A stretch of 19,725 bases of DNA, taken from positions 1-19,725 of the forward strand of contig JANNWY010000104.1 in the NCBI GenBank assembly GCA_031409335.1, written 5' to 3'. The DNA is from Chthoniobacteraceae bacterium (GTDB taxonomy: Bacteria > Verrucomicrobiota > Verrucomicrobiia > Chthoniobacterales > Chthoniobacteraceae). A program made the position numbers and the translations under genes. Shown here piece after piece: positions 1,970-19,635 of this stretch; position 1 is the first letter of the stretch, and each line of letters opens with the position of its first letter. The notes beneath the pieces were generated by a model. The model did not search any database and had not been told where the DNA came from. It saw nothing but the letters and a program-made list of their open reading frames with translations.

Positions 1970-2258
1970 GTCCATTGGGCAGACTGTCGAATGAAAGTGC
2001 GCGGCAGCGGCTGGGCCTGCGCAGTCTCCATCTTTGATCGCTCCCTCAAAAAAACCGCGGCTAAAATAGCACTTGTCGAAACCGAGCGGATATGAATGCT
2101 CGACTGTGTCGTGCTGAGCGACTGAAACGTTTTGTGACAGAAACGTGCCCCAGTGAGTCTTCCGCCAGGAACGGGAACTTCATCTTCCGATCTGACGGTT
2201 TCGAGTCCGGTAGCCGAGAACGCATCTTCCTAAAAGTCAGTTGCCTCAAAATCACCCT

Positions 2259-5200
2259 ATGAACTCCCTCCACTCCTCCCTGCGCGCTCCAGCGTGCCTG
2301 CGTCCATTCCACACGCTCATCCTGGCCCTCGCGGGTGCGGCGCTACTGTTCGGAATTTCACCCTCCCGTCTGTCCGCGGATTTGAGCGGTCTTCCACCGA
2401 CGATCCATTTCACCCAGGGTCTGCAAGGGAAGCAGGTGTGCCTGCGCTGGGTGGCGCAACCGGGGGTGCAGTATGTCGTCCAGAAATCGGCAAGTTTAGC
2501 TGTGATGGGTTCGCCCGGCGGGTTCGCCACGGTGGCGCTGGTGACGGCGGAAAGTGCGGCCTGCCAGTGGGTGGACCCGGAAGCGGCCGCGACGAAAGCG
2601 TTTTACCGGATCGAGATCCCAGGGCCACAAGTCTTTGCGCTGGAGCCTGCGGTGATCTCGACGACGGGCGGTGACATTTTCGTGCGCGGTCAGTGCCTGC
2701 CTGCCGGGTCTTTCCTGGCGCTGGAGATACCGGGGCAAGCGCCGATTTTCGTCCCGCTCGTGCCGGTCGCAGGTCAACCGGGACTGTGGCGCGCGAGCGT
2801 TGGCGGAATCGCGGGCGGTGTCGTGGCCGGAATCGTCATCGCCGCGCGGGTGACGGATTCCGATGGCACGACGGTGGCGCTCGTGAATCAGACGATCGAG
2901 GTGACGGAGACGGGCTATGCCTCCGATGCGCCGCCGTGGCTGCCACCAGCGGCGCCAGTGCCCGTGGCGCAAAGCAATCCGATCCCGGGGATTGGAATTG
3001 TCGTCAAAAGGAATCCCAAGAAAAAATATGCCCATCGCGCGACCCCGGGCTCCGATGATGATTGCGATGACATGGACGACGACGCGTCGGGGCTCTGGCT
3101 CAGCAGGAAGGGATACCAATACTACATGGCACAATCGGACATGAGCAGTGCGAGAGCGCACATCAATCCGGCTTTCAAAGAAAATAGCAACTCAGGTTCG
3201 ATGGTTTCCGCGATGGCGGCAGGGAATGGCGGGGAGGACGACGGCGATATCCCAATGAGTGACTCCGTGGCACGGAATTCTGGAATGGGTAGGGGAAAGG
3301 TATCCTTACAAGACTTCCACTTCGCAGTCCACAGAGGTCTGCCCGGCGAAGTTTCCGCCGAGCAATGCGACCTCGCATTGCCTTGTCCGGCGGGTCCGCC
3401 CTTGGAGTGGGTCCGCAGCTACCGCAGCAGGGCACCGGTCGCCTCCGGTCATGGCACGGGCTGGGATTTTTCCTATAACATTTACATCGAGCCCGTCCCG
3501 CTCGCGGCGGGAGTGAATGCGCCCGTCGTGCTGGTCCATGATGGCAGTGGGCGGACGGATAAGTTTGTCCGTCAAGGGGATGGGAGCTACCGCTGCAACG
3601 GCATGTTCCGCGAAGGGCGCTTTAACCCGGACACCTCCTTCACGCTGACCTTTGCGGACAAAGGGGCGTGGATTTTCTGCCGGCTGGTGGGCGCGCCGTG
3701 GTCGGGCCGCATCGGCAGCATCGCCGATCGCAATGGCGTGGCGCTGAACTTCACTTACAACAACGGCCAGCTCGCCACGGTGAGCGATGCCTTTGGCCAC
3801 AGCCTGTCGGTGACGTGGGGTCCCACGGGGCAGATCAGCAGTGTCGCGGATTCCACCGGACGCTCGGTTTCCTACTCTTATTTCGGTGGCGAACCTGGCG
3901 GGAGCGCGGGCGACTTGAAATCCGTCTCCTGTCCGCAAGAGGGCGGCCTGCCTCCCGTGAGCGGCCCGACCACTTACACCTACACCAGTGGCTCTGCCGA
4001 CGACCGGCTCAATCACAATCTCACCAGTGCCACGGACGGTGCGGGCCGGAATCTCGGAGCCTTCACTTACTCGTTATCTGCGAATCCAGCGGAACTGGAG
4101 TTCGATGCCGTGGCTTCCGTCCGCAAAGGCCAGGAACTCCTCGGCAATGTGAAGAACATCAAAATCCCTACCAGTGTCAGCGACGACGATCTTCAAGCTT
4201 ACGTGATCTATGAAAACGATGAGCTGGGCCGCGTCACGGAGACGACCTGCGACCGGATGCACCGGCCCACTTCCGTCCGGGAATATACTGGCTTCGCCAC
4301 GCCGGGCGCGCCCGTCACAGCGACGACGAATCGCCCCACCGGAAAGCTCCGCGCTGCCGACCCTGACTTTTACCAAACGACCTGCCTCTACAATGGCCAG
4401 CACCTGCCCACGCGAGTCACGATGCCGGATGGAGTGCAGGAGCGCACCACTTACGAATACGACCTGAAGCCCGCCTGCCCGCTGCGCGAGCGCGCCAATC
4501 CCCGCGTCTGCACGCTGGTGTCTCCAGCAGGCGAACAACGCACCATTTCCATGGAATATCTGCCGGGCTTCGGGTCGGCTGAGCCTGGGCTCAACGGACT
4601 TCCTCCCGGCGAACCCATCATTCGCCGCATCGGCCTGAACGGTCTGCCACCCGGCCAACCCGTCATCCGCGGCATCAGCCTTAACGGACTTCCTCCCGGT
4701 CAACCCGTCATGGGTGGCATCTGGGATGGCGGTGACGGCGACGGTGGCTGCACGGAGTCCGCGCGCGGGGTCGATCGCGATGGCAAGGACTGCACGAATC
4801 ACGGCCATCACAAGCTGGGTGCGGCAAAGATAGGCCCGAAACAAAAGGCGTGGCTGTGCGCCAACTTCCGCGTCAGTCTGCGGACGTCCCTGGGCCAGCA
4901 GTTCTCCTGGGGCTACGACGCCTCGGGCAACCGCACGAGTAGCCGATCACCCATCGCCGGAGCGGGATGCGACATCGCTTACAACACTCTCGGCCAGGTC
5001 ACCAGCGTGAGGACACTGAACGGCCCCGGCTCCACGTTCATCGACGAGTGCGTCTATGATGCCGACAGCGGTTTCTGCATAAGCTTCATCAGCGACAGCC
5101 CCGGCCTGCACCTCACCACTTCCTGCGCCCGCGATGCGCTGGGCCGGGTCACCAGCATTACCGATCCTCGCGGCTTCGACACGCTCTTTACCTACAATCC

Positions 5201-8200
5201 GCTCGACCAGTGTGTCACCGTGCAATCACCACCCGTCGGCAACGGTGCCGCCGCGCGCATCACCACCACCTACTTTTACGACGCCGGCGGGCTGCCTTCG
5301 GGCTGCGATATCGAGCATCGGGATGCCACCGGAGCCTTGGTCGCCGCCAATCCCGCCTACAGCACCCGCATCCTCCGCGAGAGCCCGAGCCGCCCGCGCC
5401 TCGTCTCCCGCGTGGCGGTGGAAAATCGCCCCGTCGCGCTTCCTGCCGGGAGCACAGACATCGCCTCCGTCGGCCTTGCGAACTTCGATGTTTGCGACTT
5501 TCTCTTCGATGCCGCCGGCCAGTGCATTCAGGAAAGCACACCCGCTGTCTGCCGCGCCCAGCCCACCGACTCCGTGACCAGTTACCAATACGACGAGCGC
5601 CGCCTGCTCCATCGCTGCATCGATGGCCAGCAGGGCGCTCCAGATGCCGTGACCACGACCACGGAATGCGATTACACGCCCGCGGGTGATCTCAGCCGCT
5701 GCGCCACGCTCGCAGCGTCAGGCGGATTGCCCGGAGCGGTGAATCCCACCGTCACGTTCACCTACGATGGTTTCCGCCGCTGCACCTTCAGCACGGATCC
5801 GATGGGAAATGTGGAGACATTTTCATATGACAACCAAGGTTATGTGACGTGCTCGCTCTTTGGAGAACTCGACGATCAACCCGGCTCGGGTGAAAATGTC
5901 CTCCTTTCCCGCGTGAAGGTGAAATTCCATTGGGATTGCTCAAGCGAGGAACGAAAGGCTAGACCAGCGGTCGGCCGCCCGATACTCCAAGGTATTACCA
6001 GCCGCTGGACTCCACTCGTTCCGAAACCGCACGATTCAGCCTTCTTCGACGTCTTCACCAAAGACGAAACCATGACCGTGGATCGCTTCACGGCCACCAG
6101 TTCCGCACAGGAAGTCACCACGGTGAATCGCTCACCGGCGGGATTCGTAATGAGTATTTCGACCAATGGCGACACGCTGGAGAGCAACACCTACGACACC
6201 GCCAGGCGTCTGCTCTCTTGCGCGAACGGCGCCTGTTCCGTGGCATACACGCTGGATGCGTGTGGCAATGTGCTTTCCCTTACTCGCACGGATTTCCCGA
6301 GCGGGGGCGGAAGTCCCGCAGTGAATCTGGTCCGGCTTGCGACTTACGACGCGCTTGGCCGGGCGGTGCAGATGTCGGAACGCGCCAATGTATCCGCCTA
6401 TCAATACGACTCCCTCAGCCGCGAGACCTGCTTCCAGCCGCCAGTGGGAGCCCCCGTTTACAGCAACTACGATGGCACCGACGCCAGCGGACCCTACAGC
6501 GTCCAAACGCAGTGTGATGTCGATGGCAACGGATCGCCTGAAACGCTGGGTAGCTCCTACGCCCGCGCCTGCCCGAAGCGCTACAAGATCAAGATCGACA
6601 TCGGCCCGCCGCGCCCACCCATCTTCGGCCGCTCGGTGACAAACTCAAACGGTCACACCACGACCTTCACGCTCGACTCCCGGGACCACTGTGTGCAGAC
6701 GGATTTCCCGGATGGCACCCAGCAGTTTCGCCAGTTCGATAGCTTGGGACGCCTCGTGTCGGATTCCCGGCAGGACGGAGCGACCTTCATCAGCGAATAC
6801 AATCTGAATGGCGCGGCAACGAGCATCTATACCGGTCCGTGCAGACCACCCTACCTATGCGATTACATCGCCGTGGCGGCAACCTCGCTCCACTACAATG
6901 GCCGCGGCGACTGCACCCGGCTCACCCAAGGCACCTCGGATGTTATCCGCAGCTTTGACTCCTGCGGAAATATGGTGAGCGAAAGCCAGAACGGGCACAT
7001 CGTGCAGCACACCTACACGCACCGCGGACGCGCCAGCACCACTTACCCAAGCGGCGCGCGTTACAATGAAACCCGCAACGCGCAAGGCTTGCTCCTTTCG
7101 GTAGCCGCCGAGGGTGCGGCGGGGACGCCGGTTGCGGCGATCCAGTATCTAGGCTATCGCCCGGCCCAGGAGACGCGGGCCAATGGCGTCGTCACCAGCT
7201 ACGGCTATCGCGGGATCAATGATCCACCGATACAGGGCACCGGACCGGATTTCTCCGTCGATGCCTGCGTCCAGAGTCTCGTCACCGGACCGACTGGCAC
7301 CGTGCTCTCGCGCAGTTTCTTTAGCCGGGATGCGAATCAGCAATTGATCCGCCGTGAAACGATTTTCGGCGAGGGACCGAACACGTCCGCCCCATTGCGC
7401 CGGCAACTCATCACCCGCGATCGGCTGAACCGCCTCACCCGCATGGTCACTGGCGCGCGGCGCAACGCAGGCACCGCCATCGCGCTCGAATCCGACGTTA
7501 CCTACACGCTGGATCTCGAAGGCCAGCGCCTTTCCGCCACCGGCGGATCCCATCCCGGGGCTTACTCTTCCAACGATCTGAATCCCCCCGGCGACCGTCA
7601 GATGAACCAATACTCATCGTGGCCCGGCGGACCGCTGGAGTGGGGTGACAATGGCAGCCTCACCCTGCTTTCGGACGGCACGACGGGCACGAAACACTTC
7701 GTCTATGACGCTTACTCCCGACTCGTGTCCGTGGTGGATCCGAATACAGGCGTTGCCCTGGCGAGTTACAGTTACGATGCCTGCGACCGCCTGGTTTCAC
7801 GCACCATTCCGAACATCATCGCGGCCTTGCCGCCGGTGATCACGTTCTTCATCTATGATGGGGATGCCTGCATCCAGGAACTCAACGAACTCGGCGAGCC
7901 GCAAATGACGTTCGCCGCGATGGGCCTGTGCATCATCCCGATCAATGGCGATCCCATTTATCCGCATGGCAGCAGCGCCTTTTTAGCCCGGTCGATCAGG
8001 GCGGGCCACTATGCGGTGTCGAACTTTCACATCGAGGTCGATGGTGCCAGTGGCGGATACCTTTCGTCATTCCAGCCTCCATCCTATGAAGTGGAGGACG
8101 TTTCCCAATGCCTCACCACCGGCATCGGAGCGGTGCTCGAACGCTTTGATTTCGACGACGGCGGGCAGCCGATATTCCTGACCAGCGATGGCGTGGTCCG

Positions 8201-8390
8201 GCAAGGTGCCAGCAGTTCACTCAGCGGCTTTCGCTGGCTGGCACCTGAATGCATCTGGAGCCCCGAAAGCGGCCTCTTCAACTGCCCCGGCGGCACCTAC
8301 AGCCCGGCCCTCGGGCAGGAGGTCTCCGCGAAGACCAAACCCAAGGAGCGCAAGAAAGAGTACGTCGGCCACGTGACGCTGATGAAGTAG
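2259..8390 (+). CDS. Large exported RHS/YD-repeat protein with DUF6531-like domain and no toxin tip (2043 aa from ATG 2259)
   Basis: Signal peptide (..RPFHTLILALAGAALLFGISPSRLSA); IPT/TIG-like segment PQVFALEPAVISTTGGDIFVRG; DUF6531-like DLALPCPAGPPLEWVRSYRS...GTGWDFSYN; many YD repeats (RDALGRVTSITDPRG, YDALGRAV, FDSLGRLVS, YDAYSRLVSV); degenerate RHS core end (WSPESGLF...YSPALGQ). ORF track starts at TTG 2241; the in-frame ATG at 2259 is preferred. Confidence 0.9.
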   Translation: MNSLHSSLRAPACLRPFHTLILALAGAALLFGISPSRLSADLSGLPPTIHFTQGLQGKQVCLRWVAQPGVQYVVQKSASLAVMGSPGGFATVALVTAESAACQWVDPEAAATKAFYRIEIPGPQVFALEPAVISTTGGDIFVRGQCLPAGSFLALEIPGQAPIFVPLVPVAGQPGLWRASVGGIAGGVVAGIVIAARVTDSDGTTVALVNQTIEVTETGYASDAPPWLPPAAPVPVAQSNPIPGIGIVVKRNPKKKYAHRATPGSDDDCDDMDDDASGLWLSRKGYQYYMAQSDMSSARAHINPAFKENSNSGSMVSAMAAGNGGEDDGDIPMSDSVARNSGMGRGKVSLQDFHFAVHRGLPGEVSAEQCDLALPCPAGPPLEWVRSYRSRAPVASGHGTGWDFSYNIYIEPVPLAAGVNAPVVLVHDGSGRTDKFVRQGDGSYRCNGMFREGRFNPDTSFTLTFADKGAWIFCRLVGAPWSGRIGSIADRNGVALNFTYNNGQLATVSDAFGHSLSVTWGPTGQISSVADSTGRSVSYSYFGGEPGGSAGDLKSVSCPQEGGLPPVSGPTTYTYTSGSADDRLNHNLTSATDGAGRNLGAFTYSLSANPAELEFDAVASVRKGQELLGNVKNIKIPTSVSDDDLQAYVIYENDELGRVTETTCDRMHRPTSVREYTGFATPGAPVTATTNRPTGKLRAADPDFYQTTCLYNGQHLPTRVTMPDGVQERTTYEYDLKPACPLRERANPRVCTLVSPAGEQRTISMEYLPGFGSAEPGLNGLPPGEPIIRRIGLNGLPPGQPVIRGISLNGLPPGQPVMGGIWDGGDGDGGCTESARGVDRDGKDCTNHGHHKLGAAKIGPKQKAWLCANFRVSLRTSLGQQFSWGYDASGNRTSSRSPIAGAGCDIAYNTLGQVTSVRTLNGPGSTFIDECVYDADSGFCISFISDSPGLHLTTSCARDALGRVTSITDPRGFDTLFTYNPLDQCVTVQSPPVGNGAAARITTTYFYDAGGLPSGCDIEHRDATGALVAANPAYSTRILRESPSRPRLVSRVAVENRPVALPAGSTDIASVGLANFDVCDFLFDAAGQCIQESTPAVCRAQPTDSVTSYQYDERRLLHRCIDGQQGAPDAVTTTTECDYTPAGDLSRCATLAASGGLPGAVNPTVTFTYDGFRRCTFSTDPMGNVETFSYDNQGYVTCSLFGELDDQPGSGENVLLSRVKVKFHWDCSSEERKARPAVGRPILQGITSRWTPLVPKPHDSAFFDVFTKDETMTVDRFTATSSAQEVTTVNRSPAGFVMSISTNGDTLESNTYDTARRLLSCANGACSVAYTLDACGNVLSLTRTDFPSGGGSPAVNLVRLATYDALGRAVQMSERANVSAYQYDSLSRETCFQPPVGAPVYSNYDGTDASGPYSVQTQCDVDGNGSPETLGSSYARACPKRYKIKIDIGPPRPPIFGRSVTNSNGHTTTFTLDSRDHCVQTDFPDGTQQFRQFDSLGRLVSDSRQDGATFISEYNLNGAATSIYTGPCRPPYLCDYIAVAATSLHYNGRGDCTRLTQGTSDVIRSFDSCGNMVSESQNGHIVQHTYTHRGRASTTYPSGARYNETRNAQGLLLSVAAEGAAGTPVAAIQYLGYRPAQETRANGVVTSYGYRGINDPPIQGTGPDFSVDACVQSLVTGPTGTVLSRSFFSRDANQQLIRRETIFGEGPNTSAPLRRQLITRDRLNRLTRMVTGARRNAGTAIALESDVTYTLDLEGQRLSATGGSHPGAYSSNDLNPPGDRQMNQYSSWPGGPLEWGDNGSLTLLSDGTTGTKHFVYDAYSRLVSVVDPNTGVALASYSYDACDRLVSRTIPNIIAALPPVITFFIYDGDACIQELNELGEPQMTFAAMGLCIIPINGDPIYPHGSSAFLARSIRAGHYAVSNFHIEVDGASGGYLSSFQPPSYEVEDVSQCLTTGIGAVLERFDFDDGGQPIFLTSDGVVRQGASSSLSGFRWLAPECIWSPESGLFNCPGGTYSPALGQEVSAKTKPKERKKEYVGHVTLMK
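4587..4721 (+). repeat. Three tandem 45-bp in-frame repeats (xLNGLPPG[E/Q]PxxxxI) in the RHS gene
   Basis: Units at 4587-4631, 4632-4676 and 4677-4721 encode GLNGLPPGEPIIRRI, GLNGLPPGQPVIRGI and SLNGLPPGQPVMGGI, with synonymous differences. Confidence 0.92.
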
Positions 8391-8430
8391 GTTGCTTTCC
8401 GCGGCGCTGCCTGACCGGCTGCGAGGCACC

Positions 8431-9951
8431 TCAAAAACTCCCTTTTTGCAAACCAGTCAATGGTGCCGCAACCGAATCGGCGGATACCGCGTGCAGGCGA
8501 ATCTGCATCTCCAGTCCGTGCGGCTCGCGATTGCGCGCGGTGACTGTGCCGCTGCACGAGTCGATGCACGTTTTCACGATGGCCAGACCGAGGCCGGTGC
8601 CGCCGGTGTCTCGCGCGCGTGAACTGTCCACGCGGTAAAAGGCGTCGAAAATTTTCGGCAGTTCTTCCTCGGGGACGCCGGGTCCGTGATCGGCGATGGA
8701 GATCGTCACGTCTTCGCCGTCGCGTGCGGCGCGCAGCTCGATGGGACCGCTCGCGGCAGCGTGGCGGATGGCATTGCGCAGCAGATTTGCGAGCGCGCGG
8801 ATGAGCAGGTCGGGCTCGGCGGATACTGTTAGATCGTCGGCGATATCGACGATGATTTCCACGGCGTCGGTTTTCTCGCGGCGGATTGCTTCGCTGGCGA
8901 TTTCGGCGAGGCGCACTTTGCGAAGCTGAATCGACGCGGCACCGAACGAGGCTTTTGAAAACGAGAGCAGTTCCCCGACCAGTCCGGCGATTTGCTCGGC
9001 CTTTTCCGACGCCGCGCGCACGTAGCTCATCTCATCCTGGGCGGCGCGCTGTTCGAGGATGCCGAGCGCCATTTGCAGGCGCGCGAGCGGCGAGCAGAGT
9101 TCGTGGGCGATGTCGCCGAGGAAACGCTTTTGCCCGCTCACCAGACCGTCGAGCCGCGCGGCCATTTGGTCGATGGATTCGCCGAGCGCGCCGAGTTCAT
9201 CGTGGCGGCGGAGGTTCACGCGCACATCGAAGCGTCCGTCCGCGATTTTGCGCGTCGCGGTTTTCATCTGGCCGATCGTGCGGGTGATGCCGCGGACGAG
9301 CGGCAGCCAGAAAAGCAGCGAGAAAACGAGGATGCCGATGCCGAGCCAGAACCACGGCTTTGGATCGAACACCAGCCCGCCGGCGCTGATCGTGTCGGAC
9401 TTCGCGACGAGGACGATCCGCACGGAATCGCCGATCATCGGATTTTCGAGCCGACCGCTCGCGAGCAGCCAGTATTGCGTCGGCGCGGTCGTGCGCATGA
9501 GCGCGCGCAGCGGCAGGCGCGGCCAGCGCGGTCGCTGGGCTTCCGTGGAGAATTCAGCCGGAAGAGGAGGTGCCGCGGCAGGTGGCTCGCCTGGTCTGCG
9601 GGGACGGATGGGAATCCGTGTGAGGATGCGCTCGCGCACCTCATCGGGCAGCGTGGTGATCTCACCGAGGAACGGCTTCGCATCATCATCGAACAACGCG
9701 AAACGAACGCGGTGCGCCTCGCTGTAGCGCCGCATCACGGCGTTCCAATCGTCCGGCGCGGTGATGGCCAGTTCACCCAGGATCAGATCGCGCACCGCCT
9801 CAATGCGTTCGCGCGCGCCGCTGGCGAAAAACCAATCGAGATCGAAGCGGAATTGGGCGTTGAACAGGATGACGAATACGGCGGCGACGGCGACGAGATT
9901 CAGGAAGAACCACGCGAGGATTTTGCCGTAGAGTGGAAGCCGAAGGCGCAT
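8431..9951 (-). CDS. HAMP-domain sensor histidine kinase (CpxA/BaeS-like)
   Basis: Two TM segments, HAMP (RKIADGRFDVRV..RHDELGALGESIDQMA), H-box GDIAHELCSPLARL, N-box LANLLRNAIRH, G1 DHGPGV, F-box IFDAFYR, G2 GGTGLGLAI. Confidence 0.95.
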   Translation of the reverse strand: MRLRLPLYGKILAWFFLNLVAVAAVFVILFNAQFRFDLDWFFASGARERIEAVRDLILGELAITAPDDWNAVMRRYSEAHRVRFALFDDDAKPFLGEITTLPDEVRERILTRIPIRPRRPGEPPAAAPPLPAEFSTEAQRPRWPRLPLRALMRTTAPTQYWLLASGRLENPMIGDSVRIVLVAKSDTISAGGLVFDPKPWFWLGIGILVFSLLFWLPLVRGITRTIGQMKTATRKIADGRFDVRVNLRRHDELGALGESIDQMAARLDGLVSGQKRFLGDIAHELCSPLARLQMALGILEQRAAQDEMSYVRAASEKAEQIAGLVGELLSFSKASFGAASIQLRKVRLAEIASEAIRREKTDAVEIIVDIADDLTVSAEPDLLIRALANLLRNAIRHAAASGPIELRAARDGEDVTISIADHGPGVPEEELPKIFDAFYRVDSSRARDTGGTGLGLAIVKTCIDSCSGTVTARNREPHGLEMQIRLHAVSADSVAAPLTGLQKGSF

Positions 9952-9989
9952 CGCTCAGGATGATACGGCGAACCTTGGGTGCTGGATCT

Positions 9990-10010
9990 TGAACATCGAT
10001 TCGATGTTCA
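9990..10010. repeat. Perfect 10-bp inverted repeat of the GAACATC heptad family
   Basis: tgaacatcga-t-tcgatgttca lies between the regulator and kinase genes and has the same ends as the 90-bp elements at 17226 and 18639. Confidence 0.75.
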
Positions 10011-10024
10011 TTCCTGTTCCGCGT

Positions 10025-10777
10025 TCATTCCGCATCCGGGTTAATGAGCATGTATCCCACTGCCCGCACGGTGCGGATGAAGCGCGGATTTTTCGGATCG
10101 TCGCCGAGCTTCCGGCGCAGCGACCAGATGTGGACATCGATCGAGCGATCGAGGCCGTCATAACTGCGCTCCGCGATCGTCTCGATGAGTTGCTCGCGGC
10201 TCTTCACGCGACCCCGCGCACGGGCGAGGCTGGCGAGCAATTCAAACTCCAGCGCGGTGAGCGTGAGCGGCTGCTCGCCGAGGATGGCGACGCGTGCGTT
10301 CGGATTGATGCGCAGCGGGCCGACGACGATTTCCGCCTGCTCGCGATCGCCGTCGCCAGCCGCCGGGCGCGCTTTGCGACGGGTGACGGCGCGCAGCCGC
10401 GCGAGCAGTTCGCGTGAGGAAAATGTCTTCGGCAAGTAATCGTCCGCGCCCATTTCGAGACCGACGATTCGATCCGTCTCCTCGCCGCGCGAAGTGAGCA
10501 TCAGGATCGGCACATCGGACGCCGCGCGGAGCCGCTTGAGCACTTCAAAGCCATCCATACCAGGCAGATTCACGTCGAGAATGACCGCGTGAAAATGCTC
10601 GCTTGTCGCGCGCTCGACGCCGTGCGGGCCTTCATGCTCGGCGAAGACTTCGTAGCCGATCGGTTCGAGGTAATCCTTGATCAGCGTGCAAAGTTCGCGG
10701 TCATCGTCGATCACCAGCACGCGCGTCGCGCCGCCGGAAGGCGGGCGCGGAATGGGATGAGAGGTGGAGAGGGACAT
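10025..10777 (-). CDS. OmpR/PhoB-family response regulator (CpxR-like), 250 aa
   Basis: Receiver domain (VLVIDDD, VILDVNLPGMDG, LMLTSRG, GADDYLPKTF) and winged helix (DRSIDVHIWSLRRKLGDDPKNPRFIRTVRAVGY). Start set at ATG 10777 because the upstream extension is translated heptad repeat. Confidence 0.95.
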   Translation of the reverse strand: MSLSTSHPIPRPPSGGATRVLVIDDDRELCTLIKDYLEPIGYEVFAEHEGPHGVERATSEHFHAVILDVNLPGMDGFEVLKRLRAASDVPILMLTSRGEETDRIVGLEMGADDYLPKTFSSRELLARLRAVTRRKARPAAGDGDREQAEIVVGPLRINPNARVAILGEQPLTLTALEFELLASLARARGRVKSREQLIETIAERSYDGLDRSIDVHIWSLRRKLGDDPKNPRFIRTVRAVGYMLINPDAE

Positions 10778-10786
10778 GGGTGGTGG

Positions 10787-10944
10787 AAACTTCCAAGCTC
10801 CAAGCTCCAAGTTCCAAATAAATTTCAAAGCTCAGATTCCAAATTTCAAAGCACCCGTCCGCCGCGGGTTCCGCTTCCTTGAAATGTTCTTCATTTGCAG
10901 CCCTTGGAATTTATTTGGAATTTGGAATCTGGAGCTTGGAATTT
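10787..10944. repeat. Inverted pair of degenerate heptad (TCCAAxx) tandem arrays
   Basis: aacttccaagctccaagctccaagttccaaataaatttcaaa (~10788-10829) is an imperfect inverted copy of cttggaatttatttggaatttggaatctggagcttggaattt (10903-10944). AT-rich compared with the flanks. Confidence 0.8.
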
Positions 10945-10966
10945 GCCGCTTCGGCCATGCCGCAAA

Positions 10967-11019
10967 CTTAACTCTCTCTTAACAATTCTCCGTTTCCGCC
11001 CAAATGAGCAATTAACAAT
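10967..11019. promoter_or_regulatory. Putative OmpR/PhoB-type direct-repeat operator in the divergent promoter region
   Basis: TTAAC at 10968, 10979 and 11012, all in 11-bp phase; the last two extend to TTAACAAT. Lies between the regulator and the divergent exported-protein gene. Confidence 0.5.
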
Positions 11020-11114
11020 GACCAAGTCTATTGAGAGTCGAACCAGCCGCGAAATCACGGTCGGTTCGCAAACAACAAAGGCCCCCGCGGCCGCAAAACA
11101 AAAAAACTGACATC

Positions 11115-11660
11115 ATGAAAATGAAACTGACAATCCTCCTCAGCGCGGTCGCGCTGACAGCCTCCGCATTTCTCGCAACCGCGCAAGACAACCCGCCCGA
11201 TCGTGGCAATCGCGGTGATCGCGGTGATCGCGGCGGCACGCCTGAAGAATGGCGCGCACGCATGTCCGAGCGCCTGAAGACTTCACTCAAAGTGACAGAC
11301 GACGAATGGACCGTGCTGCAGCCGCTCATCGAAAAAGTGACCACCAAACAACGCGATGCCATGTCCGGCCGATTTGGCGGATTCGGCGGTCGCAGCAGCG
11401 GTGGATCTGGGGGTGATCGCGGATCGAGCAGCGGCGGCGGATCGGGCGGGGATCGGCCAGGCACGGCGGAAAGCCAGGCGCTCCGCGATGCGTTGGAAAA
11501 GGAAGGCACGGCCGCGACCGACATCGCGGCGAAGCTGGCTGCCGTGCGCGAGTTTCGCAAAAAGTCCGCAGCCGAACTGGCCGCGGTGCGCGCCGATCTC
11601 CAGAAAGTCGTCACCGCGCGTCAAGAGGCCGTCCTCTTCTCGATGGGCATTCTCGAATAG
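11115..11660 (+). CDS. Exported helical protein, Spy/CpxP-like (181 aa)
   Basis: Signal peptide MKMKLTILLSAVALTASAFLATA-Q; LKVTDDEW and VVTARQEA resemble LTxEQ-type motifs; Gly/Arg-rich linkers; divergent from a CpxRA-like pair. Confidence 0.75.
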   Translation: MKMKLTILLSAVALTASAFLATAQDNPPDRGNRGDRGDRGGTPEEWRARMSERLKTSLKVTDDEWTVLQPLIEKVTTKQRDAMSGRFGGFGGRSSGGSGGDRGSSSGGGSGGDRPGTAESQALRDALEKEGTAATDIAAKLAAVREFRKKSAAELAAVRADLQKVVTARQEAVLFSMGILE

Positions 11661-11688
11661 CCGTCCCGCGCTGGCACCATACGCCTTT

Positions 11689-11733
11689 CCGCTGCCATGG
11701 TTGCGTGCCAACGGCACTCTTCCATGGCGGCGG
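11689..11733 (+). terminator. GC-rich intergenic stem-loop (terminator or mRNA stabiliser)
   Basis: ccgctgccatgg (11689-11700) pairs with ccatggcggcgg (11722-11733), with inner stem gtgcc-aac-ggcac. No clear U-tract. Confidence 0.4.
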
Positions 11734-11783
11734 TGGCGGTGGTCACGTTCCGCTTTCACACCGCACCCGCCTCCTTTTTGAAA

Positions 11784-13481
11784 ATGACACCGCTCAATCT
11801 CATGTTCTGCAATTTCTTCGCCACGGCGACTTTTGCGCTGGCGCAGCAGCCGCCGAATCCACCGCCCGCGGATCGCCCCGCGCAGGAGACTCCGCCGCCT
11901 GCGGGACCGCCGGACGGATTCCGCGGCGGTCCCGGCGGACCGCCGATGCAGAGCGAGATCAAGCTCGTCGATAAGTTCGATGAAAATGGTGACAAGCGGC
12001 TGGACACCGCGGAGCGGAAAGCGGCGCGCGCATTTCTCAACAAAGAACGCGCCGAAGGTCGGCTCGGGCGCGGCATGGGGCCGGGTCGTCGCGGCGGTCC
12101 TCCCGGTGGTCAGCCGCCGGGAGCCGGTGGTCCGCCATCCGGTTTCGGTGGCCCGCGGGAAAATCAGCCGCCGCCGGAGCCCGGTGTGAAGCTCTCGCCA
12201 GCGGACGTGAAAACGTATCGCGCGACGCCGCTTTACGACGCGCAGACGCTGCGGACTTACTTCCTCGATTTTGAAAATGCGGACTGGGAAAAAGAGCTGC
12301 TGGATTTCCACGGCACCGATGTCGAGGTGCCCGCAAAGCTGACCGTGGACGGCAAAATTCACGACGACGTCGGCGTCTATTTTCGCGGCGCGTCGTCGTT
12401 CGGAGTCGGCGAAGGGCGCAAGCATTCGATCAATCTTTCGATCGATCACGCCAAGGGAAGTCAGCGCCTCGGCGGTTATCGCACGCTCAATTTGCTGAAC
12501 TCCTCCGGCGACCCGACGCTGCTCTGCGCGGTGCTTTACCACCAGATCGCCCGCGAATACATCGCGGCACCCAAAGCGAACTGGGCGCGCGTGGCGATCA
12601 ACGGCGAAAGCTGGGGCGTCTTCATCAACGTCCAGCAGTTCAACAAAGACTTCGTCGCGGAATGGTTCGGCTCGAAAAAAGGCGCGCGCTGGAAAGCGCC
12701 GGGCCGCCCGAATGGCAACAGCGGTCTCGAATTTCTCGGCGACGACGCGGCGGAATACAAAAAGCGTTACGAGATCAAATCGAAGGACGATGCGGAATCG
12801 TGGGATGCGCTCATCGAGCTGTGCCGCGTGCTGAATCAAACGCCCGCCGGGCAGCTCGAGGAAAAGCTCGCGCCGCTCCTCGACATCGACGGCGCGCTGA
12901 AATTTCTCGCGCTCGAAAACGTCTTCATCAACACCGACGGCTATTGGACGCGGGCCAGCGACTACAGCCTCTACTGCGATGAAGACGGGCGCTTTCACGT
13001 CATCTCTCACGATGTGAATGAAACCTTCCGCGCCGCGGGAGGACCGGGAATGCGCGGCGGTGGTGGTGGTGGTGGTGGCGGACGCGGCGTGGAACTCGAT
13101 CCGCTGGCCGGCGCGGACGATGCGAAAAAGCCGCTGCTTTCCAAACTGCTCGCCGCGCCCGCGCTGCGCACGCGCTTCCTCCGCCATGTCCGCGAAATCG
13201 CGAGCACCTGGCTCGACTGGGACAAGCTCGGCCCGATCGCGCAGCAGTATCAGGCATTCCTCGCCGACGAGGTGAAAGCCGACACGCGCAAGCTCGGCAG
13301 CTACGAGGCTTTCGTAGATGGCATCGCTGGCGGAGAAGCCGCGCCGGAGCCGCAGCGCGGGCCGGGCCGCGGGATGAGCCTGAAAACTTTTGCCGAGCAG
13401 CGCCGCGCGTATCTGCTCGCGCATCCCGAGATTCAAAAACTCGTCGCCGCGACCGAACCGGAAGCCACCCCAAAACGATAG
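11784..13481 (+). CDS. CotH kinase family protein with N-terminal EF-hand
   Basis: Signal-like N-terminus ending TFALA-QQ; EF-hand loop DENGDKRLDTAE; CotH-type motifs VGVYFRGASS, TLNLLNSSGDPT, PKANWARVAINGESWGVFINVQQ, DGYWTRASDYSLY, FHVISHDVNETF. Start at ATG 11784 inferred. Confidence 0.88.
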   Translation: MTPLNLMFCNFFATATFALAQQPPNPPPADRPAQETPPPAGPPDGFRGGPGGPPMQSEIKLVDKFDENGDKRLDTAERKAARAFLNKERAEGRLGRGMGPGRRGGPPGGQPPGAGGPPSGFGGPRENQPPPEPGVKLSPADVKTYRATPLYDAQTLRTYFLDFENADWEKELLDFHGTDVEVPAKLTVDGKIHDDVGVYFRGASSFGVGEGRKHSINLSIDHAKGSQRLGGYRTLNLLNSSGDPTLLCAVLYHQIAREYIAAPKANWARVAINGESWGVFINVQQFNKDFVAEWFGSKKGARWKAPGRPNGNSGLEFLGDDAAEYKKRYEIKSKDDAESWDALIELCRVLNQTPAGQLEEKLAPLLDIDGALKFLALENVFINTDGYWTRASDYSLYCDEDGRFHVISHDVNETFRAAGGPGMRGGGGGGGGGRGVELDPLAGADDAKKPLLSKLLAAPALRTRFLRHVREIASTWLDWDKLGPIAQQYQAFLADEVKADTRKLGSYEAFVDGIAGGEAAPEPQRGPGRGMSLKTFAEQRRAYLLAHPEIQKLVAATEPEATPKR

Positions 13482-13484
13482 CGC

Positions 13485-15251
13485 ATGAAGAACGCATCCA
13501 CACGCATCCTCGCCAGCGCGCTCGTCGCGTCGGCGATTTTTTCCACCGAAGCCGCCAACTGGCCGGGCTGGCGCGGCGCGGATGGCACCGGCATTTCTTC
13601 GGAAAAAAATCTGCCGCTCAAATGGAGCGCGACTGAAAATGTGAAATGGCGCATCGACCTGCCGGAGCGCGGCAACTCGTCGCCGATCGTATGGGGCGAG
13701 CGTGTATTCGTGACGCAGGCCGTCGGCGATCGGCGCACGCTACTGTGCCTCGACCGCGCAACTGGCAAACAACTCTGGCAGTCCGGCGTGACCTACACCG
13801 AGCGCGAGCAGACGCAGCGCGACAATCCGTATTGCACGGCAACGCCCGTCTCCGACGGCGAGCGCGTCATCGCGGCGTTCGGTTCGGCGGGGCTGTTTTG
13901 CTACGATTTTTCCGGGAAGGAATTGTGGAAGCGCGACCTCGGGAAAATGAGCCATCAATTCGGCAACGGCTCGTCGCCCGTGCTCGCGGGCGATTTGTGC
14001 GTCTTCAATTTCGGGCCGGATGAAAAGGCGCGCGTCGTCGCCGTGAACAAACGCACCGGCGAGATCGCGTGGGAAACAGCCGCACCGAAAGCCGACGGCG
14101 GCGAGCCGCCACCACCTTCACAGCAGGAGCCGCCGCCCGAACCCGTCCGCACTTTCGCTCCCGGCGAAATGCTCGCGCCGCCCATCCTCGCGCAGGCCGA
14201 CAAGAACGCCGACGCGAAACTCAGCCGCGAAGAATTCACCGGACTCGCGCAGGCGTGGTTCGAGAAGATCGACCGAGACAAGGCCGGGAAGCTCGATTCG
14301 CGCACGTTTGGCGAGCGGTTCGCCGAGTTATTCCCGCCGCAACCCAGCGGCAACGACCAGCCCGGCGGACGCCGATTCAGTCCGATGCGCGCTTTCGGTT
14401 TCGGCTTTTTCAGCACGTCCGACGCGGATCGCGACGGCTCGCTGACGCGCGAGGAATTCAGCGGCGCATTTTCAAAATGGTTCGGCGAATGGGATGCCGC
14501 CAAATCCGGCGCGCTCGACAATGTGAAACTCCGCGCCGGGCTCGATGCCGCGCTGCCGCGCCCGCAAATCGGCGGCGGCGGCGGTAGTGGCGGTGGTGGA
14601 TTCGGAGGCGGGCGCGGCGATGGCGGCGGACGCGGGCCCGGTGGGTCGTGGAGCACGCCGCTGCTCATCCAGAGCGGCGGGCGCGAGGAATTGATCGTGA
14701 ATTTTCCCGGCAAAATTTCCGCGCTCGATCCGAAGACCGGCAAGGAACTTTGGTCGGCAAAAGGACTCGGCGGCGCGAGCTACACCACGCCCGTTTTCGG
14801 CGAAGGCGCGCTCGTCGTGACGAGCAGCGGACCTGGCGGCGGCGCGGCGGTCGCGCTCAAACCCGGCGGTGGCGAAAGCTGGAAGCTGGATCGTTTTCAA
14901 AGCGCGATCGGCTCGGGCGTCATCACCGACGACCATCTTTACACGATCAGCCAGAATGGCGTCGCCGCGTGCAGCGATGTGAAAACGGGCGCGACAGTTT
15001 GGGAAGAACGGCTCAAAGGCTCCGGCAGTCGCGGCAGTTCGTGGTCTTCGATCCTGCTGGCCGACGGGAAAATTTTTGTGCCAAACCAGGGCGGCGATGT
15101 CTTCGTGCTGCGCGCTGCGCCGAAGTTCGAGTTGCTCGCGACGAATTCCGTCAACGAATCCACCAACGCCTCGCTCGCCGCCAGCGACGGCGCGCTTTTC
15201 CTCCGCACCGACAAGAGCCTGTGGTGCTTCACGAACGCCGCCGCCAAATAG
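13485..15251 (+). CDS. PQQ-binding-like beta-propeller protein (BamB-like repeats) with internal EF-hand module
   Basis: Signal peptide, then NWPGWRGADGTGIS..LPLKWSATENVKWRIDLP, SSPIVWGERVF, CLDRATGKQLW, ALDPKTGKELW; C-terminal GALFLRTDKSLWCF. EF-hand-like loops DKNADAKLSREE, DRDKAGKLDSRT, DADRDGSLTREE, DAAKSGALDNVK. Confidence 0.9.
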   Translation: MKNASTRILASALVASAIFSTEAANWPGWRGADGTGISSEKNLPLKWSATENVKWRIDLPERGNSSPIVWGERVFVTQAVGDRRTLLCLDRATGKQLWQSGVTYTEREQTQRDNPYCTATPVSDGERVIAAFGSAGLFCYDFSGKELWKRDLGKMSHQFGNGSSPVLAGDLCVFNFGPDEKARVVAVNKRTGEIAWETAAPKADGGEPPPPSQQEPPPEPVRTFAPGEMLAPPILAQADKNADAKLSREEFTGLAQAWFEKIDRDKAGKLDSRTFGERFAELFPPQPSGNDQPGGRRFSPMRAFGFGFFSTSDADRDGSLTREEFSGAFSKWFGEWDAAKSGALDNVKLRAGLDAALPRPQIGGGGGSGGGGFGGGRGDGGGRGPGGSWSTPLLIQSGGREELIVNFPGKISALDPKTGKELWSAKGLGGASYTTPVFGEGALVVTSSGPGGGAAVALKPGGGESWKLDRFQSAIGSGVITDDHLYTISQNGVAACSDVKTGATVWEERLKGSGSRGSSWSSILLADGKIFVPNQGGDVFVLRAAPKFELLATNSVNESTNASLAASDGALFLRTDKSLWCFTNAAAK

Positions 15252-15283
15252 CTCGATGACCAAAGCCCCCGCCATTTCCGAAA

Positions 15284-15469
15284 AGCCTGAAAGGCTGACA
15301 CGTCGCAGCCCAGGGCAACGCCCTGGGTTTGTGCAAAAAAACGGAAAAGCCCTGAAAGGGCGGGACAATCCACACGCGCATTTTTGTGCCGCCCTTTCAG
15401 GGCTGACGCGCTTTACGGCCAATACCCAGGGCGTTGCCCTGGGCTGTGTTGTCACGGCCCCTTGGGCCT
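15284..15469. repeat. Composite REP/BIME-like palindromic element
   Basis: Nested inverted units: cagcccagggcaacgccctgggt (15306-15328) with acccagggcgttgccctgggctg (15424-15446), and agccctgaaagggcgg (15348-15363) with ccgccctttcagggct (15389-15404). Small hairpins at both ends. Confidence 0.88.
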
Positions 15470-15497
15470 GCGGCGGCGGGTTCACCACGATGCTTCC

Positions 15498-17213
15498 ATG
15501 ACCGAAGCGCCCTCCACCTCCACCTCCGCTCCGCGCCAGGATCTGCTGGCCGCGATGATCGAGCGCGCGCAACTCACTTCTATGGATGCCGAGGCGCTGG
15601 CGCAGCAATGCCTCGCGGGCACGGCCAGCGCGGAGACCGAGGAGGAAGTGCTGCGGTGGCTCGCCGCGGAGTACGGGCTCGCTTTCACCACGCTCGAAAA
15701 CATCGAGCCGGATCGCGCGCTGCTCGCGCAATTTTCCGCGCGCATCTTGCTCAAAGAAGAGCTGCTGCCACTCCGCGAAATCGACGGCGTGATCGAAGTC
15801 GCCGCGAGCCGGCTCTTCGCGACGCCGGGGCTCGACAGCCTGCGCTCGGCCACCACGCTGAAACTCCAGCCAGTGCTCGCGCCGAGCGAGGCGCTGCAAC
15901 GGGAGATTAAAAAACATCTCGGCGTCGGCGCGGACACGCTGAATCTGCTCGAACAGGAGGAAGGCTTCCAGGTCGTCTCGGACGATCGGGAAGACGACGG
16001 CGATCTCGACAAGGCGGCGGAAGACGCGTCGATCATTCGGTTCGTCAATCAAGTGCTCAGCGACGCGATTTCACTGCGCGCGTCGGATGTTCACGTCGAG
16101 CCATTCGAGCACGAGCTGCGCATTCGCTATCGCATCGACGGTCTGCTGCAAGAGGTGCCGGTGCCCGGCCAGATCAAGCGTTTCCAGCCCGCGATCGTTT
16201 CGCGCATCAAGATTCTCAGCAATTTGAACATCGCCGAAAAACGCGTGCCGCAGGATGGCCGCATCAAGCTGCGCGTGAAGAGCACGGAGGTGGATGTGCG
16301 TGTGTCCGTCATCCCGATGCTGCACGGCGAAGCGGTCGTGATGCGTCTGCTGCGGCAGGATGCGGGCGTGGTCGGGCTCGACGGGATGCAAATGGCGCAG
16401 CGCGAGCGCGAACTTTTCGAGCGCGTGCTGGAGATGCCGCACGGCATCGCGCTTGTCACGGGGCCGACCGGCAGCGGCAAAACGACGACGCTTTACAGCG
16501 CGCTGCATCAGATCAACGACGAGGTGCGCAAGATCATCACGATCGAAGACCCGGTGGAATATCAGCTCAAGGGCATCAATCAGATTCAGGTGAACGAGAA
16601 GGCCGGGCTGACTTTCGCGCGCGGGCTGCGGGCGATTTTGCGTCACGATCCAGACGTGGTGCTGATCGGGGAAATTCGCGATCAGGAAACCGCGCAAATC
16701 GCCGTGCAGGCATCGCTCACCGGCCACATGGTTTTTTCCACGCTCCACACGAACGATGCGCCCGGTGCGCTGACGCGGCTCGTGGACATGGGCGTGGAGC
16801 CGTATCTCGTCGCATCGTCGCTCGAAGCCGTGATCGCCCAGCGGCTCGTCCGTGTGCTCTGCCCGGATTGCAAAGCGGAGGACACTTCCACAAAAACGAG
16901 CCTGCTCCGCGAGCGCGTGCCGACGCTGCGCGGCACCACGATCTTTCGCCAGACGGGCTGCAAGAACTGCCGCATGACTGGCTTCACCGGAAGGCGCGCG
17001 CTGTTTGAGCTGATGACGATGAGCACGCCGATCCGCGCGATCCTGCTGCGCGGCGGATCGAGCATCGAAATCAAGGACGCCGCGAAAACGGAAGGCATGA
17101 AGACGCTGATCGAAGACGGCTGGCGCGTGGTCGCGGATGGGCAGACGACGCCGGCGGAGGTGCTGCGGGTTTCCAAGGATGAAGGGACGGATGGATTTGC
17201 TGTGAGCGCATGA
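15498..17213 (+). CDS. gspE: Type II secretion ATPase, GspE/PulE family
   Basis: ASDVHVEP, RYRIDG, EKRVPQDGRI, Walker A GPTGSGKTTT, Asp box TIEDPVE, Walker B DPDVVLIGEIRD, His box GHMVFSTLH, CPDC...CKNC zinc site. Start set at ATG 15498 because the upstream extension is REP sequence. Confidence 0.95.
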   Translation: MTEAPSTSTSAPRQDLLAAMIERAQLTSMDAEALAQQCLAGTASAETEEEVLRWLAAEYGLAFTTLENIEPDRALLAQFSARILLKEELLPLREIDGVIEVAASRLFATPGLDSLRSATTLKLQPVLAPSEALQREIKKHLGVGADTLNLLEQEEGFQVVSDDREDDGDLDKAAEDASIIRFVNQVLSDAISLRASDVHVEPFEHELRIRYRIDGLLQEVPVPGQIKRFQPAIVSRIKILSNLNIAEKRVPQDGRIKLRVKSTEVDVRVSVIPMLHGEAVVMRLLRQDAGVVGLDGMQMAQRERELFERVLEMPHGIALVTGPTGSGKTTTLYSALHQINDEVRKIITIEDPVEYQLKGINQIQVNEKAGLTFARGLRAILRHDPDVVLIGEIRDQETAQIAVQASLTGHMVFSTLHTNDAPGALTRLVDMGVEPYLVASSLEAVIAQRLVRVLCPDCKAEDTSTKTSLLRERVPTLRGTTIFRQTGCKNCRMTGFTGRRALFELMTMSTPIRAILLRGGSSIEIKDAAKTEGMKTLIEDGWRVVADGQTTPAEVLRVSKDEGTDGFAVSA

Positions 17214-17225
17214 TTTTCAAAGGCA

Positions 17226-17315
<90 letters not shown>

Positions 17316-17378
17316 GCCCCCGGCAGGGCCATCCCGATCAATCAAACTCCCGCCGTTCGATGTCCCGATTTTAGAGCC

Positions 17379-18622
17379 ATGCCCGCCTTCACCTACAAAG
17401 CAGTGCAAGGAAACGGCGCGACGATCGAAGGCCGCATCGACGCGGGCGGTCGGCAGGATGCCGTGCGCTTGATCGAAGAGCGCGGCCTCACGCCAGTGCG
17501 CATCACCGAATCCGACGCTGGCCCGGAAAACGGTTCGCGGCCCGCGCTGAAGCTGCCGACGGCGACGCAGTTCTCCTTCAAGTCGAAGAAGGTCAATTTC
17601 GCCGCGCTCGAAGATTTCACCCGCTCGCTCTCGAGCCTGCTCACCGGAAACGTCCCGCTCAGTCGCGCGCTGCAGATTCTTTACAAGGAATCGTCGAATC
17701 CTGTCGCTTCCGCGAAGTGGAAGGAGCTGCACGATCTCGTGATCGACGGCGTTCCGCTCGCCACCGCGATGAGCCGCGCGCCGGATGTTTTCCCGCGTGT
17801 GTATGTCGCGATGGTCGAGGCCGGTGAGGCGGGCGGTTTCCTCGATGTCGTGCTCGCGCAGATCGCGGATTTTCAAGCGCGCGAAAAGGAACTGCGCGCA
17901 AAGGTGATGGCGGCGCTGATGTATCCCGCGGTGCTGCTCTTTCTCGCCATCGCGGTGCTGATTTTTCTCATGGTCTTTTTCATCCCGCGCTTCACCACGC
18001 TCTTCGCGGGATTCGACGCCGCGCTGCCCGCGCTCACCCAAGTCATCGTCGCCATCAGCGACATCGTCCGCCACTACGGCCTCTTCCTGCTCGCGGGAAT
18101 CGGCGCGGCGATCTACTTCGGGCGCGCGTGGTTTGCGAAGGAAAGCAGCCGTCGCCTTTGGGAATCGTGGCTGCTGCGGATGCCCGTCATCGGTCCGCTC
18201 GCCTCGAAACTCGCGCTCGCCCGCTTCTGCCGAATGCTCGGCACGCTGCTCGGAGCCGGCGTCTCGCTGATCAGCGCGCTTTCGGTGTCGCGGCGTTCGC
18301 TGGGAAATCAGACGCTGATCGACCTCGTGACCGACGCCACAGAGCGCGTGAAAAAAGGCGAGCCCCTCGGCGCGGCACTCGCGGATTGCCGCGCGCTTTT
18401 CGGCGGATCGACGCTGGAAATGATCGCTGTCGCGGAGGAAAGCGGGCGGTTGGATCAAGAGCTGGTGCGGCTTGCCGGGGTGAGCGAAGTGACGCTCGAC
18501 CGCCAACTCAAGACCGCCGTCGCCCTCGCGGAGCCGCTCATGCTTTTCGCCATCGCCGGATTCATCGGCACGATTTTCGTCGGGATGGTCATCCCGATTT
18601 TTACGATTCAAGACTACATCAA

Positions 18623-18626
<4 letters not shown>
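17379..18626 (+). CDS. gspF: Type II secretion inner-membrane platform protein, GspF/PilC family
   Basis: Typical start MPAFTYKAV..G.IDA; FTRSLSSLL..VPL; MVEAGEAGGFL; ALMYPAVL; MIAVAEESGRLD; LAEPLML..MVIPIF. Directly downstream of gspE. Confidence 0.95.
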
Positions 18627-19137
<511 letters not shown>

Positions 19138-19138
<1 letters not shown>

Positions 19139-19635
19139 TGATCCGCGCCCGGTCAGCACAAGGTTTCACGCTCGTCGAACTCATCATCGTGATGACGTTG
19201 CTCGCGATCGTGGCTGCGCTTGCCGTGCCATCTCTATCGCGCTCGATGCGGCAGCGGAACCTCGATGAAGAGGCGACGCGCCTCCTCGCGCTGACCGAAT
19301 ACGCCCGTGACGAAGCCGTCTCGCAAGGCGTGCCGATGGTCGTCTGGATCGACGCGAAATCGCAGCGGTACGGCATTGAGCCAAAGGCCGGCTTTGATTC
19401 GGATGAAACGCGGGCGCGTGAATACGCGATGAATCCCGACGTGCAGATCGAGGTCGAGAAGGCGGCGGCGAGCGGCGGAATCGTGGAAGCGATCGAGATC
19501 GAAGCGGATGGCGCGATTGGTTCTTCGAGTGTCGCGAGTGTGCGGCTCGTGGATCGGTTCAAGTCGGAGGTCACACTTTCGCAGACGACGGACGGCTGGA
19601 GCTACAAACTGGTGAAGGAGGCGACGACGAAATGA
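19138..19635 (+). CDS. gspH: Minor pseudopilin, GspH/FimT family
   Basis: TAATG overlap with gspG; MIRARSAQG|FTLVELIIVMTLLAIVAALAVPSL; EATRLLALTEYARDEAVSQG is typical of GspH/FimT. Confidence 0.8.

Follow-up and report, generated by a model that had tools for sequence, protein, structure and literature searches.

We describe an open reading frame (ORF) of the RHS/YD-repeat type in a window of 19,725 nt, i.e. the whole stretch of Chthoniobacteraceae DNA that was analysed. The variable segments of the encoded protein are strings of recurrent short peptides ("words"), often arranged in tandem, and many of these words also occur in proteins with unrelated, non-RHS scaffolds. Tests on the window gene support VgrG/gpV, the gp19 tail tube and, at the family level, Hcp as donors of the words, and in relatives EF-Tu, HU, Hc1 and the extracellular contractile injection system (eCIS) core can be added. 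We tentatively interpret the variable loops as a putative bait or decoy array of conserved foreign motifs, an interpretation that we find plausible without calling it probable. In the anatomy of the gene our confidence is high.

When 5.8 billion proteins were searched, 498 matches were obtained among 8000 scored candidates. The best 120 of these 498 (33-75% identity) were examined, and the 107 with a length of 1900 aa or more were aligned. The named relatives are Verrucomicrobiota, from which we infer that the window belongs to this phylum as well. In the 107-member alignment, the scaffold is conserved throughout, and conservation collapses at V1, V3, V4, V5, V7 and V8 (Table 1), with milder variation at V2 and V6. 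The peptides listed in the initial annotation of this DNA are present in the ORF where it had placed them, and the inserts indeed vary in content and length at fixed sites, V1-V8. The motif at 6036-6059, also listed there as an insert, is different in that it is largely fixed in the family consensus; it also appears in 6 of 68 non-RHS proteins. At V5 most members carry no insert (median 16 aa, window 33 aa), and the content of V4 differs in relatives with 72-83% scaffold identity. The terminal word of V8 is shared, in the same position, by 22/106 relatives, and is also present in 5/27 and 5/68 non-RHS proteins. Contigs of related organisms from public runs are replaced or skipping at V1, V2, V4, V7 and some scaffold positions, and one sediment contig matches the window only at 6831-6869 (V6), with unrelated flanks. 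Some family members are broken or frameshifted into several ORFs (L011:7923-10920; L026:7980-14158).

The scaffold is that of a YD-repeat shell. TIGR01643 matches the window protein alongside the RHS repeats of PF05593, and an alignment-based model of residues 360-1555 (54 sequences) reached a predicted local distance difference test score (pLDDT) of 81.7 and a predicted template modelling score of 0.78; a prediction from the single sequence (pLDDT 30) was set aside. Foldseek returned Rhs and teneurin shells, the former at E<1e-35. Values of pLDDT below 50 are confined to V3, V4, V5 and one 5-residue turn, and these three sites are predicted to be disordered loops within the folded part. In Rhs proteins, as described in PMC8636562, a PxxxxDPxGL aspartyl autoprotease motif ends the core and precedes the toxin. 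This motif is absent from both the window protein and the family consensus, no core-domain model matches the last 101 residues (8085-8387), and the tail after the core has a median length of 25 aa, reaching at least 80 aa in 3 of the 107 members. A hydrophobic stretch lies at the N-terminus of 74/107 members, and the shell is likely exported. The toxin-less cage that the initial annotation had envisaged is thus borne out, with a signal-peptide-like start, and the protein is, as judged from its sequence, an RHS shell without toxin or autoprotease motif. The conserved region at 2379-2951 has no significant match in Pfam, PHROG or NCBIfam.

The words behave as separable units. Of the k-mer-derived words, 62/235 occur at more than one site, with overlapping fragments inflating both numbers, and the stricter data-derived set gives 24/54. 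On the scaffold tree, 50 of the 54 words need at least three changes (median 8), mostly well below shuffled labels, in a test of data-derived, unnamed words rather than individually named ones. Therefore, the words are inherited, yet repeatedly gained, lost or moved; recombination among family members would add to these changes. Turnover is fast, the mean shared 7-mer fraction being 0.27 at about 90% scaffold identity, and terminal words mostly remain terminal. As for the window itself, 10 of its 18 words turn up again, either at a second variable site or in non-RHS proteins, which is more than chance (scaffold control peptides, 4/60 and 0/60), where the non-RHS set had been chosen by word 3093-3140, so that this one row is circular. 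In the separate set of 68 non-RHS proteins, 8/18 words recur against 0/40 controls. When both sets are combined, 13/18 recur and five have no such match. The earlier suggestion that short foreign motifs accumulate at fixed, permissive sites is supported.

The same vocabulary is found in unrelated scaffolds. One word, used to scan metagenomes, retrieved 34 loci, 8 RHS and 26 non-RHS, most of which hold further words. The non-RHS loci comprise 12 small low-GC proteins made of words only, with signal-peptide-like starts, 5 carboxypeptidase-regulatory proteins, 4 members of another small family, and one each of FG-GAP, CARDB, beta-helix, word-only and no assigned family. Searching the whole library with one word-only protein yielded 71 matches, three of them from this RHS family. 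Among the 41 that were scanned are CARDB, Ig-like, carboxypeptidase-regulatory, OMP-barrel and FecR proteins, in which Hcp or kinase models match in part. Wherever a co-scaffold is annotated, its type is that of a surface or secreted protein. The vocabulary, including RRM-type pieces, is also shared by another RHS family that is only distantly related (~29% identity; L034:1-3360 on the minus strand, and L051). Judging from their GC content and neighbours, the low-GC word-bearing proteins probably belong to Bacteroidota. The idea of an RHS-specific class thus has to be given up: as far as the sequences indicate, RHS is one scaffold among several for a shared vocabulary.

Within the phylum the vocabulary is rare, since one word turned up in just one genome out of 301, i.e. 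the host genome G000 (7.94 Mb, 326 contigs, 98% complete), on whose contig C104 the ORF lies. There, clear vocabulary matches are the RHS gene and the true EF-Tu only. With one query, 23 carrier genomes revealed mainly RHS copies and one other collage scaffold (L123). A conserved low-GC cluster (L031, L036, L039, L040, L049, L060, L063) combines one or two word-bearing proteins of ~200 aa, a DUF3078 protein of ~300 aa and a word-only protein of ~150 aa, and may be an operon that exports or anchors collage proteins. A protein of 3375 aa (P0244) carries FecR, FG-GAP and cohesin domains with Hcp-type pieces, and is possibly an anti-sigma sensor bearing the vocabulary.

The window inserts were also searched separately, as had been advised. 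Fourteen window segments taken alone gave no informative Pfam or PHROG match, three inserts compared with PDB sequences gave nothing or unrelated chains at E>0.3, and tblastn of V7 or a word-only protein against phages and plasmids gave nothing meaningful. No shorter proteins were found with V1, reads over V1 show no donor, and three of four word patterns have no match in viral contigs. The ESM Atlas returned no usable match for V1; for a word-only protein it gave hypothetical clusters alone, all under 0.9. The host proteome is matched by 31 of 522 family segments at E<1e-3 (three shuffles, 1, 0 and 0; reversed, 0), in 30 of the 31 cases through EF-Tu, and at the same threshold 7 of 87 family segments have Pfam matches, namely EF-Tu three times, HU, Hc1, eCIS core and EGF. 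The donors are therefore not restricted to secretion and injection proteins, as had been supposed: the housekeeping proteins EF-Tu, HU and Hc1 of a different phylum are among them.

The individual assignments made at the outset fared unequally. For the VgrG/gpV word, all three viral-contig matches to its pattern are gpV/VgrG proteins of PF04717, one of which has exactly these nine residues, and a longer version occurs in the relative P0008. The assignment to gp19 is likewise supported by the shuffling test (Table 1), with a small family-level excess for a profile of one narrow clade (2/747 segments at 6 bits or more, against 0.1). Hcp holds as a donor at the family level, where a profile of 20 proteins scores at least 6 bits in 6/747 segments against 0.2 in shuffled ones and several distinct Hcp motifs are seen, but the case is weak for the window's word alone. 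The link to carboxypeptidase-regulatory domains is indirect, via a similar word that opens a true PF13620 domain in L035. Cargo of the type IX secretion system, type B, was considered and rejected; no full CHU_C domain lies at the C-terminus, PF13585 being absent from both the window protein and the host genome. No full CHU_C domain was detected in 201 genomes either, in a search whose control also matched nowhere. For the 12-aa tail, CHU_C is a candidate donor.

The EF-Tu words can be regarded as non-self and as coming from a different phylum. In G000 and in four carrier genomes the host's own EF-Tu differs from them, with a nucleotide identity of 55-80% in the four. For a 46-aa EF-Tu insert, the nearest matches are EF-Tus or pieces of them, and all 16 organism-named matches among the best 120 are Bacteroidota, up to 97% identical. 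Presumably Lit protease cleaves within one of the EF-Tu words. Three EF-Tu sequences (P0121-P0123), 477-491 aa long and internally duplicated, are probably assembly artefacts of two tuf copies. As for the other donors, the host genome has no PF04717 or PF06841 match and holds two Hcp-like genes.

The DNA of the words is adapted to the host while the peptide is retained. Third-position GC (GC3) of one word follows the GC content of the locus (Spearman 0.85 over 28 distinct versions), with 0.32 in 17 low-GC and 0.72 in 11 high-GC versions. Between tandem copies the peptide stays the same while synonymous sites diverge. In the low-GC non-RHS proteins the words appear to be under purifying selection, whereas the signal is weak in RHS pairs, as detailed below.

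Short-patch recombination combined with selection is the likeliest origin of the words because no linked insertion machinery was found, and we consider this route somewhat probable. The initial annotation had raised the possibility of a mechanism that inserts short coding cassettes; no neighbour of at least 150 aa (shorter genes were not compared) is common to more than 4 of 31 loci (30 loci and the window), no reverse transcriptase (RT) is linked to the RHS locus, and the two RTs of the host genome, one resembling that of a group II intron and the other of the diversity-generating retroelement (DGR) type, by our reading, lie on other contigs. In G000 there is neither a second copy of the variable segments nor a silent word array, with one query no such array was found in the 23 carrier genomes, and by eye no conserved DNA signature was seen at word flanks. 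A DGR target was accordingly rejected, with no linked RT, no second segment copy in G000 and variation by segment exchange. The latter of the two RTs adjoins an ORF resembling an FGE-sulfatase/C-type-lectin target (L092, G000:C149:32890-36489), which is DGR-like by our reading and unlinked to the RHS gene.

In the proposed mechanism, patches of 30-150 bp would enter in frame by microhomology-type recombination from environmental DNA or from other collage genes, often replacing a look-alike strand or terminus. The model, in which the VgrG word replaces a scaffold strand in register, fits such recombination. Words may then duplicate in tandem and shuffle between sites and genes, shared words serving as homology anchors, and selection on the peptide would keep them. 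A related process, SPDIR (short-patch double illegitimate recombination), inserts heterologous patches of 3 to ~100 bp at microhomologies, including foreign DNA, according to bioRxiv 10.1101/2023.11.22.568220. It is very rare and random in Acinetobacter baylyi, and alone does not explain a fixed in-frame vocabulary.

In the bait or decoy interpretation, the displayed peptides might soak up or trigger factors that recognise conserved motifs, such as proteases, toxins or receptors of competitors, predators or phages. The bait region of alpha-2-macroglobulin is likewise an unstructured variable segment on a cage-like protein, although no thioester or trap mechanism is known in the RHS shell and no homology is claimed. 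Several observations weigh against this interpretation. Many donors are cytoplasmic, and an extracellular factor recognising them is not obvious. No recombination junction was caught together with its donor, and some of the 71 matches above are native repeat proteins (TSP3, FG-GAP) rather than collages. The ratio of nonsynonymous to synonymous rates (dN/dS) in four low-GC groups is 0.07-0.12 in words against 0.17-0.35 elsewhere, where word masks taken from one sequence per pair bias the dN of words towards low values and three of the four groups have a nearly saturated dS. In eight RHS pairs dN/dS is 0.20-0.54 in words, 0.31-0.69 in linkers and 0.20-0.35 in the scaffold, so that the words are mostly not below the scaffold; they equal the linkers in two pairs. 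Swapped words misalign in these comparisons. In addition, the codon adaptation of the window words is not significantly below that of the rest (p 0.65).

A broader proposition, which we regard as doubtful, is that distant prokaryotes share a finite, horizontally circulating dictionary of cassettes, for which the best-conserved motifs of abundant proteins and of injection machines were copied. Exported scaffolds of unrelated kinds would take up these cassettes to form a combinatorial array for bait, sensing or memory, perhaps by a dedicated writing mechanism, the RHS family being the cage-shaped version.

Among the alternatives to a bait or decoy array, display for recognition or sensing survives best, although we deem it unlikely. 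Here the combination of words would be an identity code or a sensor surface for kin or partner recognition, or for adhesion as in the YD shells of teneurins. The fold shared with teneurins, the variation of the words in combination and copy number, and the surface or secreted nature of the co-scaffolds, including the FecR protein with Hcp-type pieces, all agree with this idea. However, neither a membrane anchor nor an output domain was found, nor a gene for a cognate receptor, and an identity code needs no conserved motifs of another phylum.

Two further explanations are both rather improbable. If the words were docking or poison peptides, they would be interface strands with which the protein rides on, or blocks, the secretion and injection machines of others (Hcp, tube, VgrG, pilin), in line with the recurrence of several distinct Hcp and gp19 motifs, the strand extension by the VgrG word and the mostly terminal position of terminal words. 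The EF-Tu, HU and Hc1 words do not fit, nor does a host genome without VgrG and gp19 matches. Moreover, Hcp, tube and VgrG machines assemble in the cytoplasm, whereas the RHS protein has a signal-peptide-like start. Under neutral accumulation, on the other hand, permissive loops would gather patches of abundant environmental DNA, with repeated conversion by donor genes restoring the motifs. The donors are indeed abundant, conserved genes, selection appears weak in RHS pairs, and GC3 is slightly lower in variable segments than in scaffolds (0.70 vs 0.74; 22 genes, p 0.0008, amino-acid composition uncontrolled). Against this, word codons follow the host and not a low-GC donor, tandem copies preserve the peptide alone, whole word-only genes are retained in conserved gene clusters, and in G000 no other gene shows words except its own EF-Tu.

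That words are written or swapped by a cassette system of their own (an RT, a recombinase or a template array, which might act in trans) seems slightly more improbable still: a finite vocabulary that spans distant hosts and is nevertheless rare, together with the fast turnover, speaks for such a system, but the missing conserved neighbour, the unlinked RTs and the lack of a silent array or flank signature speak against it. That the gene is an assembly chimera or an annotation artefact is very unlikely, a practically negligible possibility, because positions 2000-8575 are covered, with zero differences, by overlapping contigs from runs X2 and X3 (both from the same study, X2 possibly being the source sample) and full-length members of the same design exist in named species, e.g. 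Haloferula helveola (5.68 Mb contig), even though G000 is fragmented and none of the Logan pieces reaches across the entire gene.

The Rhs polymorphic toxins (RhsA 7Q97, Rhs1-Tre23 7PQ5, 8QJA; PF05593, PF20148) are among the closest known systems, with the same DUF6531 and YD shell (Foldseek E 1e-39 to 1e-36, template modelling score ~0.5) and variable content on a conserved scaffold. The window protein, however, lacks four of the five features of these toxins, sharing the YD-repeat beta-shell only. It has no PxxxxDPxGL motif, C-terminal toxin, immunity gene, PAAR/VgrG or type VI/type VII secretion system N-terminus in Pfam, and varies at about eight sites of short foreign peptides rather than in a single C-terminal domain that is exchanged. 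A YD shell in an extracellular protein is likewise found in teneurins and bacterial teneurin-like proteins (9IFO, 6FB3); the window protein differs in bearing peptide mosaics and in having neither an NHL propeller, by Pfam scan, nor a C-terminal toxin-like domain. In the open literature, with subscription journals mostly, and supplements, outside its scope, we found no published description of the RHS family or the vocabulary. The sole published parallel found is the decoy role proposed for ankyrin ORFs of Bodo saltans virus, in which a repeat scaffold is fused to fragments of essential genes (PMC5871332). There the fragments are own-gene pieces at the 5' ends, whereas here they are non-self, 6-50 aa long, and placed at multiple sites across unrelated scaffolds and hosts.

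As for the surroundings, no sigma-70-like promoter was found upstream of the RHS gene. Upstream lies an insertion sequence at 189-1826, with a transposase ORF at 244-1770 (DUF772 and DDE_Tnp_1_6) and 18-nt perfect inverted repeats at 189-206 and 1809-1826, followed by a REP-like 40-nt inverted repeat at 1848-1969 (93% complementary, 42-nt spacer). The next gene downstream is a convergent histidine kinase. The region 8431-19725 encodes a convergent two-component pair, a CotH kinase, a PQQ/EF-hand propeller, a type II secretion ATPase and further ORFs resembling secretion-system and pilin genes, and is not conserved beside relatives. Intergenic heptamer-repeat inverted elements at 17227-17316 and 18640-18728 flank a gene at 17250-18626, and two other palindromic elements lie at 10785-10947 and 15293-15459.

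Table 1. Features of the RHS gene in the window, with positions in nt of the window
Feature	Position	Strand	Remarks
Toxin-less RHS/YD-repeat ORF	2259..8390	+	2043 aa from ATG; in-frame TTG at 2241
Signal-peptide-like N-terminus	2259..2378	+	Hydropathy 2.76; putative cleavage site
N-terminal region without family match	2379..2951	+	Conserved in 107-member alignment
V1, hypervariable word array ahead of shell	2952..3344	+	aa 232-362; 21-221 aa in family
Hcp-type word in V1	3279..3323	+	Aligns to Hcp profile positions 37-53; equalled by 30/1000 shuffles
DUF6531 (Rhs N-terminal plug region)	3345..3566	+	PF20148, E 8e-8, aa 363-436
YD/RHS beta-shell and degenerate core, ending before PxxxxDPxGL motif	3567..8315	+	PF05593, E 1e-25
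V2, mildly variable, predicted folded	4104..4208	+	Replaced in one relative's contig
V3, hypervariable loop	4566..4898	+	aa 770-880; 52-301 aa in family; pLDDT <50 at aa 776-868
Three-copy tandem word in V3	4587-4709	+	Copies differ at synonymous sites
V4, hypervariable loop	5895..6068	+	aa 1213-1270; 31-136 aa in family; pLDDT <50 at aa 1224-1259
VgrG/gpV OB-fold word in V4	5910..5936	+	First half extends scaffold strand in model
V5, insert in hairpin turn	6546..6644	+	pLDDT <50 at aa 1439-1455
V6 word	6828..6866	+	In 1/106 relatives at threshold and 1/68 non-RHS proteins
V7, hypervariable site	7956..8132	+	aa 1900-1958; holds gp19 tail-tube-type fragment
gp19 tail-tube-type fragment in V7	8010..8108	+	gp19 profile positions 9-41; equalled by 0/1000 shuffles
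V8, short C-terminal tail	8310..8387	+	Ends in common terminal word; no toxin domain

With regard to annotation, collage proteins attract misleading Hcp or EF-Tu domain calls, as observed among our matches. If a writing mechanism exists, it would constitute a new diversification system, and if the words are baits, the vocabulary would amount to a list of the motifs recognised by microbial antagonists. More generally, the family shows how proteins evolve when peptide cassettes smaller than a domain are exchanged between phyla, with the peptide kept while the DNA adapts to each host.

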